Of a DNA stretch of 64,000 bases, positions 49,368 to 52,560 are shown piece by piece. A model generated the notes under the pieces. The model did no database searches. It saw nothing but the letters and a program-made list of their open reading frames with translations, and was not told the DNA's origin. The position numbers were made by a program, and so were the translations under genes. The stretch comes from Promethearchaeia archaeon (GTDB lineage Archaea; Asgardarchaeota; Lokiarchaeia; Sigyniarchaeales; SOKP01): assembly GCA_046483985.1 (NCBI GenBank), contig JAWOCD010000057.1, positions 64,001 to 128,000 of the forward strand. The letters are read 5' to 3'. Positions within the stretch are counted from its first letter, which is position 1. Each line of letters opens with the position of its first letter.

Positions 49368-49533
49368 ACTCTAATGGTAAATGATAGACAAATCCAAGAA
49401 TTTCAAGAAACAGCAGAAATTAAGAGTATAGATGAATATTACAACAAATTACTTACAATAAAATAATAATAAAAAAAATAGAAAAATAAAAGATTTACTT
49501 CACATAAATTTTATCTGCGAACATGGGGTTACC

Positions 49534-50604
49534 TTAAAACTCATATCCACATTTCTTGCAGACGTGCTTCTTAGCGTACATAGGGATATGGCCTACATAA
49601 GAGAGAACTTTAGATTTGTCTTCGACAGTCTTTAGATTATCTCCCACAGCTCCGCACATCGGACATTGAACTCTCTCCTCGGATTCAAATCCTCCTTCAC
49701 CAACATCTGGGGGTTTCAACTCATTCAATTCTTCGGTAACTTCGGCAAGACTCTCTTGGGTAGTTTCAAGCTCTTCAGTGAGTTCTCCAATTTTTGCATC
49801 TTTTTCACCGAGTAATTCATTCAGATCATTAACTTTAGATTTTAATTCACTATTTTTTTCTTCCAAGGAGGACTTCTCACTTTTTACACTTTCTAACTCA
49901 GATGCTTTCGATTCAGCGGATTCCAACTCCCCTTCTAATTCAGAAATTCTCGAATTAGCCGTCTGTAATTGATCCTCTAACTCAGATGCTTTCGATTCAG
50001 CGGATTCCAACTCCCCTTCTAATTCAGAAATTCTCGAATTAGCCGTCTGTAATTGATCCTCCAACTCAGATGCTTTCGATTCAGCGGATTCCAACTCCCC
50101 TTCTAATTCAGAAATTCTCGAATTAGCCGTCTGTAATTGATCCTCTAACTCAGATGCTTTCGATTCAGCGGATTCCAACTCCCCTTCTAATTCAGAAGAT
50201 TTAGATTCTGTTTTGGCCAATTTTTGTTCTAATTCCGCAAGTTTTTGATTAGATTCTTCTGATAATTGTTGTAATGTCTGTTCCTTCTCTTGGAGGGAGG
50301 ATTCTAATTCAGAAATCTTATTATTTGCTTCACTAAGTTGTTGATTTAAATTAGAAATCTCTGCTTGGTCTTTTTGTTTTGTCGTCTCAAGTTCTTCTCG
50401 TGTATTACCCAATTTTGTTTTAGCTTCTTCAAGCTCTTGGTTAGTTGAGGTTAACTCTCCACTAGTCGAGCTGAGTTCATTTTTAGTTTCAGTTAGTTGT
50501 CTCTCAAGATCATTAACTTTGGCTCGAAGATCCAATAAAAATTTCCCTTCAATCTTTTGCTTCTTGTCTGGGGACTCTTCTGCTTTAGTCCAGTCAATAC
50601 TCAT
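49534..50604 (-). CDS. Long acidic coiled-coil protein with 28-aa repeats and a C-terminal zinc ribbon
   Basis: Heptads throughout; CPMCG...CKKCGYEF at the C-terminus. Confidence 0.88.
   Translation of the reverse strand: MSIDWTKAEESPDKKQKIEGKFLLDLRAKVNDLERQLTETKNELSSTSGELTSTNQELEEAKTKLGNTREELETTKQKDQAEISNLNQQLSEANNKISELESSLQEKEQTLQQLSEESNQKLAELEQKLAKTESKSSELEGELESAESKASELEDQLQTANSRISELEGELESAESKASELEDQLQTANSRISELEGELESAESKASELEDQLQTANSRISELEGELESAESKASELESVKSEKSSLEEKNSELKSKVNDLNELLGEKDAKIGELTEELETTQESLAEVTEELNELKPPDVGEGGFESEERVQCPMCGAVGDNLKTVEDKSKVLSYVGHIPMYAKKHVCKKCGYEF
49892..50197. repeat. 84-bp tandem repeat, ~3.6 near-identical copies
   Basis: Units start at 49893, 49977, 50061, 50145; encode SELEGELESAESKASELEDQLQTANSRI. 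Confidence 0.97.
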
Positions 50605-50733
50605 GCTTTTTATTCACTATAAGTTTTTTTAAGATTTACATTTATATATTTATATAGATAATATTATTTTTATTATTTTTTTAACTAAAATATAATATTA
50701 TAGGTTTTTAACCTTTTTCAGTTAGAAAAAGTC

Positions 50734-50897
50734 TGGATATATCGGGACAAGCCCGACGGATCCTCAGAGGATCGCTGACTAGATCGCGGTAAACGGCACA
50801 TGGTACACACCGACAACTTATACATAAGCAGTCCGCAGTTGCGCTCTGGTTATGTTACGGGCAGCATCTAGGTTTGCGTCAAGCCGAATTAAATCCA
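50734..50897 (-). ncRNA. Candidate structured non-coding RNA, family unassigned
   Basis: About 83/164 G+C within very AT-rich flanks; nested helices; G-U pairs favour the minus strand; followed by a U-tract. Confidence 0.65.
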
Positions 50898-50939
50898 TAG
50901 GTCTACATATTATAATTATCTCAAGAAAGGGATTCTCTT

Positions 50940-51752
50940 ATGAATGAAGACTCGCAAGAAAAATTGGAATATCTCACCAGTTCGGGGGTATACCGGACAT
51001 TCCATAGTGGTATGATAGTCTTAGAATTTTATTTTGGGATGATTGTGGTTATTCTCTCCAATTTATGGTATTGGAATTACTTATATTATTATTTCACGGG
51101 AAATTTAATATATCCTATGGAAATTATTGGCGGATTATGGTTCGAGATTATTATATTTATCTTATTACCTTTAAATATCTATGGAAATCTTTTTTTGTTT
51201 GGCATTTCGGTAATAATTTTTTCAGCAATGATATTTAAGATAATTAATCGAATCTATCCCCCACAAGAGGGAATTTTTATAAAGGGAAGTAAGGAGTGGA
51301 AGGCAATGCATCTTAGATACTGGACGGTTTATTTTCCTATATGGGTTGCCCGCGCACTACCCTTGCCATGGGCAGATATTCTCTGTTATCGGCTTTTGGG
51401 AATAAAGATAGGGAAGAACGTGGTATCTTATGAGGGGTATATTGATCCTTTATGGGTTGAAATCGGAGACCATACTATGACCTCCCTTCACATCTGTATT
51501 TTTTCACATCTGTTATACCACGATAAGGTATTTATAAAGAAAATAAAAATAGGAAAAAACTGTATAATTGGGCCTCATACTATCGTAATGCCTGGAACTA
51601 CTATTGAGGAAGAGGCAGTTTTGGGAGCAAATAGTTTTACCTCACCAGATCAATTTTTAAAGTCAGAATTAATTCATGTGGGAACCCCGGTAAATACGAG
51701 CATGTCCTTCCAGAGCGTGGAAGATACCCGAAAAAAAATTAAAAAAACTTAA
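50940..51752 (+). CDS. Membrane protein with a left-handed beta-helix (acyltransferase-like) domain
   Basis: N-terminal TMs; LGIKIGKNV, IKIGKNCIIG...VMPG hexapeptide repeats. Confidence 0.82.
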   Translation: MNEDSQEKLEYLTSSGVYRTFHSGMIVLEFYFGMIVVILSNLWYWNYLYYYFTGNLIYPMEIIGGLWFEIIIFILLPLNIYGNLFLFGISVIIFSAMIFKIINRIYPPQEGIFIKGSKEWKAMHLRYWTVYFPIWVARALPLPWADILCYRLLGIKIGKNVVSYEGYIDPLWVEIGDHTMTSLHICIFSHLLYHDKVFIKKIKIGKNCIIGPHTIVMPGTTIEEEAVLGANSFTSPDQFLKSELIHVGTPVNTSMSFQSVEDTRKKIKKT

Positions 51753-51798
51753 AGGAATTAAAACCTATTTTAGATTTTCTACGAAAAAGTGATGATAA

Positions 51799-52560
51799 AT
51801 GTTTCAGCCAGCAAGTTTGAAAGGTGATTCCCCGACACCAATAGATGAAAAAATCCGAAAAAAATATCTTTTCATATATTTTATTATCATCCTAATGAGT
51901 CTGATCCCCTCTGTTCTCTTCGAATATTACTATTTCATTCTACTATGGAAACCTGATTTACGGATTTATTTTTTTCTTTTATCTCCATTGAATATCATTT
52001 CTGTAATTTATATATTGCAATGCAGTGCCCTTATTATTTCCAAGATCGCCTTAACTCTCTGTAATTTACTCCATTATCCTAAAGAAGGAGTCTTTGAACG
52101 GAATATAAAAGATAAAGATTACTTATTTTGGAATATCCGAAATATAATTAAGAAATGGCCATTATATATAAGCGCAACAAATCCGTTCCCTTGGTTAAAA
52201 AACCGGTTTACCTTAAGATTCTTTGGAGTCAAAATTGGAAAAAATTGTATCTGTGATAATGCATGGATCTCTTCTGAATTTATAGAAGTCGGAAATAATG
52301 TAATCATCGGGATGGGGTCCACGATTTTAAGTTTTGGAATGGATCATAACAAATTTTTTTTGAGGAAAATCACTATCGAAGATAATGTGACAATTGGAGC
52401 TAAATGCGTTATTCTACCTGGTGCCCATCTTCAAGAAAATGTTAAGGTCTCCGCCCATTCCTACGTAAATTTTGAACAAAACTTACGTGAAAATGGGATT
52501 TATAAAGGACATCCAGTAGAGCTTAAAAAAGAAGATCATACAGGTGAAGTTAATGAATAA
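51799..52560 (+). CDS. Paralogous membrane LbH acyltransferase-like protein
   Basis: TMs, P.EG.F motif shared with the upstream gene, FGVKIGKNC, IEDNVTIGAKCVILPG. Confidence 0.82.
   Translation: MFQPASLKGDSPTPIDEKIRKKYLFIYFIIILMSLIPSVLFEYYYFILLWKPDLRIYFFLLSPLNIISVIYILQCSALIISKIALTLCNLLHYPKEGVFERNIKDKDYLFWNIRNIIKKWPLYISATNPFPWLKNRFTLRFFGVKIGKNCICDNAWISSEFIEVGNNVIIGMGSTILSFGMDHNKFFLRKITIEDNVTIGAKCVILPGAHLQENVKVSAHSYVNFEQNLRENGIYKGHPVELKKEDHTGEVNE

Follow-up and report, generated by a model that had tools for sequence, protein, structure and literature searches.

TnpB nucleases are typically 300–450 aa long (PMC10691335), and those characterised from IS607 elements have 330–433 aa (PMC11061315). 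In the IS607 elements ISFba1 and ISXfa1, the omega RNA or reRNA is encoded on the tnpB strand, overlaps the 3′ end of that gene and ends at the right end of the element, and a serine recombinase gene, tnpA, is located upstream (PMC11061315, PMC10711439). A pseudoknot that joins guide-flanking nucleotides of the TnpB reRNA to an apical loop is conserved in IS200/605, IS607 and Fanzor2, and is required for activity (PMC10711439). The ISFba1 reRNA contains two pseudoknots (PMC11061315). The omega RNA of ISDra2 TnpB, an IS200/IS605 system with a Y1 transposase, is a guide RNA from the 3′ end that has a pseudoknot near the guide boundary. Standalone mobilised omega RNAs are also known, which lack an adjacent nuclease gene, are present in many copies per genome, co-occur with compatible effectors and act in trans (PMC10691335).

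We analysed a 64-kb stretch of an Asgard (Lokiarchaeota-like) genome (positions 64001–128000 of contig C32 in genome G000; hereafter, the window). Its minus-strand segment 50715–50889 is, with high probability, the solo, 5′-truncated right end of an extinct IS607-like family, made up of the end of a nuclease ORF and an omega RNA/reRNA scaffold, and is most likely immobile and functionless. The RNA of this family resembles those of ISFba1 and ISXfa1 in its same-strand overlap with the 3′ end of tnpB, in its end at the right end, in its length of about 170–190 nt with several stem-loops, in its pseudoknot between guide-adjacent nucleotides and an apical loop, and in the tnpA serine recombinase gene upstream. 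However, neither its sequence nor covariance models link it to the RAGATH-18 core or another Rfam family, and the partner nuclease in its relatives has 722–798 aa, as opposed to the 330–433 aa of the ISFba1/ISXfa1 type. The resemblance to the ISDra2 RNA is likewise one of 3′ origin and pseudoknot position, whereas the RNA sequences are unrelated, the ISDra2 nuclease is much smaller and its transposase is of the Y1 type. Unlike intact IS607 elements, the window copy has no nuclease gene, tnpA or left end. A scaffold without an adjacent nuclease gene and in many copies per genome recalls the standalone omega RNAs, but the genome studied here, unlike the hosts of those RNAs, has no compatible effector or transposase left, and the window copy has no left end. 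The RNA family is new to Rfam but of the known omega RNA/reRNA kind, and does not constitute a new class of RNA.

The relic lies between two divergent genes, at 49534–50604 on the minus strand and 50940–51752 on the plus strand. In 100-nt windows, the spacer at 50700–50899 has 46–55% GC, versus 11–18% in the flanking spacer on the side of the minus-strand gene, which encodes a coiled-coil protein. The only ORFs inside this island are spurious ones of 31–35 aa. An earlier note on this DNA had correctly recognised the GC island between divergent genes and its AT-rich flanks, and had regarded it as a highly structured RNA of no known family. The lack of a known family also holds: in the 64-kb window, the sole Rfam match at the gathering threshold is a tRNA-Ser away from the island, a permissive scan (E ≤ 10) of 50600–51000 gave three chance-level matches to unrelated families, and ARAGORN found no tRNA or tmRNA at the site. 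For the minus strand, the minimum free energy is −48.5 kcal/mol, which corresponds to a z-score of −0.62, and shuffled sequences fold equally well in 46 of 200 cases; the plus strand has a z-score of −0.93. Given that these z-scores are near chance on both strands, a claim of high structure cannot rest on single-sequence folding, which does not go beyond what is expected for the composition.

When the element was used to search its own genome (128 contigs, 97% complete), a first search gave 16 matches, and more sensitive searches with blastn and nhmmer gave about 22 copies with 71–93% identity. Seven of the copies are full-length, and the rest are missing 5′ sequence to varying extents. One 3′ boundary, immediately past a U-run and a block of 7 nt, is common to all of the approximately 22 copies, and similarity ends 0–2 nt past the last helix strand both in these copies and in those of genome G003. 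The copies adjoin unrelated genes, with their 3′ ends typically close to a gene start or end (the nearest at about 0–110 nt). A gene on the same strand occurs downstream of about 13 of the 22 copies, and the distance is 34–110 nt in 8 of these. Since their mutual identity is no higher than stated above, the copies must be old. The earlier note had envisaged an undescribed RNA element and had itself named many dispersed copies as an observation against this idea; with about 22 copies, the idea is no longer tenable.

Loss at the 3′ edge never exceeds a few nucleotides in the own-genome copies, and interior or 5′ sequence has been lost in most of them. In G003, remnants of the C-terminus and right end form the largest class, with 4 of 7. 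The proximity of right ends to the boundaries of host genes may explain why the 3′ edge is kept while the interior is deleted. We also considered whether the 5′-truncated copies originated by retro-copying, and rejected this origin because there is no common 3′ flank of guide length and because six of the “truncated” copies are internal deletions that keep the left end.

A DNA-level search of 60 genomes of the same taxonomic family gave no match. We built a covariance model, R1, from the seven full-length own-genome copies, and this model has matches in six other genomes of the family. The upstream DNA was examined at four loci in four of these six genomes. At all four, the R1 match extends over the stop codon of an intact, same-strand ORF, with 746, 722, 798 and 786 aa (L056:319–2559, L057:205–2373, L058:235–2631 and L059:262–2622, respectively, each on the minus strand). 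The ORFs encode nucleases of the TnpB superfamily. PF07282 scores above its cutoff in all four, their PDB sequence matches are to Cas12f/TnpB, and NF040570 (guided_TnpB) matches each of them, only in the last 170–330 residues and below the model cutoff. They have intact RuvC I, II and III motifs and a zinc ribbon, and about 420 aa are predicted to form a helical REC region. For one of the proteins, P0006, an AlphaFold model (pLDDT 84.6, from a 22-sequence alignment) places helices of about 420 aa in total and then a beta-barrel between an N-terminal strand and a RuvC-TNB-RuvC region. The top ranks in a Foldseek search with this model are Cas12f, ISFba1 TnpB-reRNA, ISDra2 TnpB-omegaRNA (PDB 8H1J) and other Cas12 structures. 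Database homologues of the large protein are called “transposase [Candidatus Lokiarchaeota]” or are unnamed.

In genome G015, an IS607-type serine recombinase of 202 aa, with a MerR helix-turn-helix and a resolvase domain (PF00239), is encoded 73 nt upstream of the nuclease ORF (L058:2705–3313, minus strand). Given this tnpA of MerR-plus-resolvase architecture directly upstream of the nuclease gene, the element is IS607-like. A search of the four intact loci with Rfam at E ≤ 1 gave nothing relevant, with RAGATH-18 and other IS-associated motifs included among the models.

The intact element, as seen in these Lokiarchaeota-type relatives, consists of a left end, a serine recombinase tnpA, a gene for a TnpB-type nuclease of 722–798 aa and a scaffold of ~170 nt, which begins within the final codons of that gene and ends exactly at the right end. 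By analogy with characterised TnpB systems, the nuclease would form a complex with the scaffold RNA, and ~16–20 nt of flank transcribed after the last helix would act as a guide. This guide would direct cleavage of the unoccupied target site, and so promote homing and transposon retention (PMC10691335, PMC10711439, PMC11061315). The window copy has kept only the last ~22 codons, the stop and the scaffold, and has lost the left end, tnpA and tnpB. Its GC-richness and hairpins would then be an inheritance from its past as a guide RNA.

The remnant of the nuclease gene can be read directly in the window copy. The last 22 codons and the TAA stop of a TnpB-like gene occupy 50818–50886 on the minus strand, as is also evident from alignment to the C-termini of the intact proteins P0003–P0006. 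Read in frame from 50886 to 50818, this part encodes RLDANLDAARNI...TAYV, followed by the stop, and includes the RuvC-III motif LDANLDAARNI (50851–50883, minus strand). The in-frame family consensus, RLDADLNAARNI, corresponds to the RuvC-III motif that ends TnpB/Cas12 proteins. A sibling copy on contig C16 extends upstream into a decayed TNB zinc-ribbon/RuvC region, which has a PF07282 match and one stop codon; in tblastn comparisons, this remnant is 37–40% identical to the intact relatives over about 130 aa. The copy on C64 has an internally deleted version of the coding remnant, and the copy on C21 appears, by eye, to retain upstream coding traces. There is no intact ORF upstream of any own-genome copy. 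At the level of sequence, the 5′ third of the element is the decayed end of a TnpB-like ORF.

The limits of the relic, 50715–50889 on the minus strand, are based on R1 and on homology to the 21 other copies (blastn, nhmmer). R1 scores the window copy at 180.7 bits over its full length (model positions 1–177), which ranks it among the best-preserved scaffolds. The earlier note had outlined the same island at 50734–50897, and these limits differ from those set by the covariance model. Its 3′ limit at 50734 omits the U-run and the last helix strand at 50719–50725. Given that this strand lies beyond it, the U-run is an internal linker and not a terminus.

We used MAFFT to align the 3′ domains of 22 copies, drawn from seven genomes, without structure fitting (alignment A3), and two helices are prominent in the result. 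A 5-bp hairpin, S1 (50770–50785, minus strand), has the consensus GAUCG/CGAUC and the variants GACCG/CGGUC, GACCU/AGGUC and GACUG/CAGUC. In this alignment, 95.4% of its cells are paired and 3 of its 5 pairs change on both sides. The apical loop of S1 (50775–50781, minus strand) is, judging from helix pairing across copies, the 5′ strand of a pseudoknot. The 3′ strand (50719–50725, minus strand) reads CUAACUG in the window copy, with the consensus CUGACUG, and it marks the right-end boundary, in that similarity among copies stops 0–2 nt later. This 7-bp pairing of loop and end is CAGUCAG/CUGACUG in G000, and CCGUUGC/GCAACGG or CAGUUAC/GUAACUG elsewhere; 92.8% of its cells are paired, and 4 of its 7 pairs change on both sides. 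Taken jointly, the two helices have 93.9% of their cells paired, with changes on both sides in 7 of 12 pairs. None of 500 shuffles reached their covariation score, and slid controls are 21–42% paired. The geometry is that of an H-type pseudoknot, with 1 nt, the 7-nt loop strand, no spacer and a connecting segment of ~45 nt that contains another hairpin, H3. This covarying pseudoknot matches the guide-adjacent hallmark of TnpB omega RNAs and reRNAs. The earlier note had correctly placed a structured RNA on the minus strand.

Directly 5′ of the pseudoknot hairpin is a hairpin, H2 (CGGUGUGU/AUGUGCCG; 50794–50812, minus strand), with 84–86% of cells paired in the seven full-length own-genome copies and one-sided changes only; a hairpin is seen by eye at the same position in the relatives. 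H3 (50735–50763, minus strand) is a long hairpin closed by GGA/UCC; in the own-genome copies, its pairing amounts to 78.6% of cells. For most relatives, predictions put an H3-like hairpin with a GG(A)/(U)CC closure at this position, although with differing sequences. Between H3 and the last helix strand is a linker of AGA and the U-run (50726–50734, minus strand), whose columns in A3 are nearly invariant across genera. The flank at 50699–50718 (minus strand) would, by analogy with characterised systems, serve as the guide in an RNA that was transcribed and bound.

Parts of the fold that the earlier note had drawn are retained in this structure. H2 was among its hairpins and is compatible with the family, and its GCGG/CCGC junction is compatible with the own-genome copies, in which there are two compensatory changes. 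Its UCGGG/CCCGA hairpin also fits the family, but is only the inner part of the longer H3. Its terminal helix and long arm are specific to the window copy: the terminal helix (50890–50897 with 50734–50741) has its 5′ strand in unique flank, just outside the part common to the seven full-length copies, and the inner part of the long arm is paired in only 60% of cells in these copies. The GAUCCU/AGGAUC hairpin competes with the covariation-supported one.

In the seven full-length own-genome copies, 83.0% of cells are paired, versus 82.0% in column shuffles, and 65 of 500 shuffles are as high. In this test, which covers only seven close copies, the present structure (83%) and the earlier one (79%) are both close to the shuffles and are not distinguished from each other. 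Pairing that is no better than in shuffles fits neutral decay from structured ancestors, and not ongoing selection. The window copy itself has a 2-nt deletion in S1, with the loss of one hairpin pair and of the 1-nt spacer, and a C·A mismatch in the middle of the pseudoknot helix.

We found little of the rest of the element in the own genome. A tblastn search with the four large proteins gave only the C-terminal remnant of ~130 aa on C16. The longest ORF with a TNB domain, on C97, has at least 409 aa, is located at a contig end and belongs to a different, abundant family; R1 matches in this genome are confined to copies of the relic's family. The only IS607-type tnpA is a 54-aa N-terminal remnant with a stop codon (C71:10898–11059), inside a left-end copy. 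The left end was recognised from the mutual resemblance of sequences upstream of several “5′-truncated” copies. A block common to nine loci occurs 0–280 nt upstream of six right ends, and alone at C59, C71 and C117. Six mini-elements of 100–380 nt keep both ends (C114:14655–15036, C64:16758–17086, C101:20531–20905, C115:20974–21089, C53:2674–2773 and C60:1136–1474), so many apparent truncations are internal deletions. By eye and without statistics, left and right ends have an imperfect CYGATATRT..CYAGA repeat in common. There is no left end within 400 nt of the window copy, and searches with a 27-mer (up to 3 mismatches) and with blastn using the C114 mini-element detected none anywhere in the 64-kb window. 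As far as the assembled sequence goes, the family is extinct in this host, with only decayed remnants of the nuclease (C16) and the recombinase (C71). The result that no intact nuclease is present holds for the 128-contig assembly, and an unassembled intact copy is possible. With lesions in both of its pseudoknot helices, and with neither the cognate nuclease nor the recombinase intact in the genome, the window copy is most likely a fossil without a present function. Because its scaffold is nearly full-length (180.7 bits), it could nonetheless have residual activity with a nuclease in trans.

Such activity leads to the question of whether the relic was exapted, i.e., is still transcribed and either guides a nuclease in trans or affects the coiled-coil gene. 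The documented standalone omega RNAs that act in trans (PMC10691335) provide a precedent, the scaffold is nearly complete, and the many copies upstream of a same-strand gene (about 13 of 22, with 8 at 34–110 nt) could suggest regulation. However, the neighbours of the copies are unrelated genes, the own genome has no intact cognate nuclease, its only near-intact TnpB (the C97 type) is of another family, and pairing in the own copies is no better than in column shuffles (83.0% vs 82.0%). With damage in both pseudoknot helices of the window copy as well, we consider exaptation improbable. More improbable is that the window copy is a MITE-like, stand-alone omega cassette that a recombinase could still move in trans. 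The six siblings in which both ends lie within 100–380 nt (C114, C64, C101, C115, C53 and C60) have the form expected of such cassettes, but the window copy lacks a left end, both within 400 nt and in the 64-kb window, the only tnpA in the genome is the 54-aa remnant with a stop codon, and copies that are 71–93% identical are old.

The least credible reading, to which we attach hardly any weight, is the original one of the earlier note: an undescribed, stand-alone structural RNA or a cis-regulatory leader of the coiled-coil gene. A GC island in an AT-rich spacer that matches nothing in Rfam is what might be expected in this case. Yet the fold z-score is only −0.6, and the sequence is multi-copy and continuous with a nuclease ORF remnant. 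The unrelated neighbours of its approximately 22 copies contradict both a leader and a stable RNA of its own, as does the position of the element in the relatives, which is at the 3′ end of TnpB-type genes at all four loci followed upstream. A decayed right end of an IS607-like element is the reading that we prefer.

Reading the locus as such a right end removes a false lead, in that the best-looking “new ncRNA” of the window is very probably a transposon fossil, and it adds an omega RNA family that is supported by covariation and absent from Rfam. As this case illustrates, a GC island in a spacer of an AT-rich Asgard genome can be what is left of a dead guide-RNA scaffold.

The intact large IS607-type TnpBs found in the relatives (722–798 aa) are about twice the size of the characterised IS607 TnpBs and far exceed the 300–450 aa usual for TnpBs. 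Of 300 genomes sampled from the phylum, 8 encode the N-terminal 480 aa, and these 8 belong to one Asgard order. Tentatively, these proteins might represent an IS607-borne, Cas12-sized TnpB lineage, to which the relic would also belong, that still uses a transposon omega RNA with the classical pseudoknot and that, in the sampled genomes, is limited to this one order; if uncharacterised, it would be an independent expansion. Should this conjecture be true, the expansion of TnpB to the size of Cas12 or Fanzor would be seen while the gene is still part of a transposon, and in those archaea that are most closely related to eukaryotes. The proteins are of possible interest for the TnpB-to-Cas12/Fanzor transition and as new RNA-guided nucleases.

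We now note properties of the surroundings of the relic. The coiled-coil gene (49534–50604) starts 110 nt downstream of it and encodes a 356-aa protein that contains near-exact repeats of 28 residues and, at its C-terminus, a CxxC..CxxC zinc ribbon. On the other side, 51 nt separate the relic from the start codon of the plus-strand gene (50940–51752), whose 270-aa product is hydrophobic in its N-terminal half and carries a hexapeptide-repeat (LbH acyltransferase-like) domain at the C-terminus. Public runs with near-identical sequence include salt-lake metatranscriptomes, and we compared contigs of three metatranscriptome runs and one DNA run with 49500–52000. Contigs from RNA libraries (at least 99% identity) span the parts 49590–49897 and 50213–50598 of the coiled-coil gene. 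The region 50599–51151 is uncovered in every run, including the DNA run, so contig coverage carries no information on expression.

The C97-type TnpB family (C97:3–1229, minus strand; at least 409 aa) is unrelated to that of the relic and much more recent, with scattered copies that are 80–100% identical. Its copies often occur at contig ends (C74, C76, C68, C116, C96, C9, C59 and C4 among them), and the family therefore probably breaks the assembly. At C23:28120–28266 in G000, a right-end relic of the omega RNA family is followed within 3 nt by a C97-type tnpB fragment, an arrangement that suggests nested or repeated insertion at one spot.
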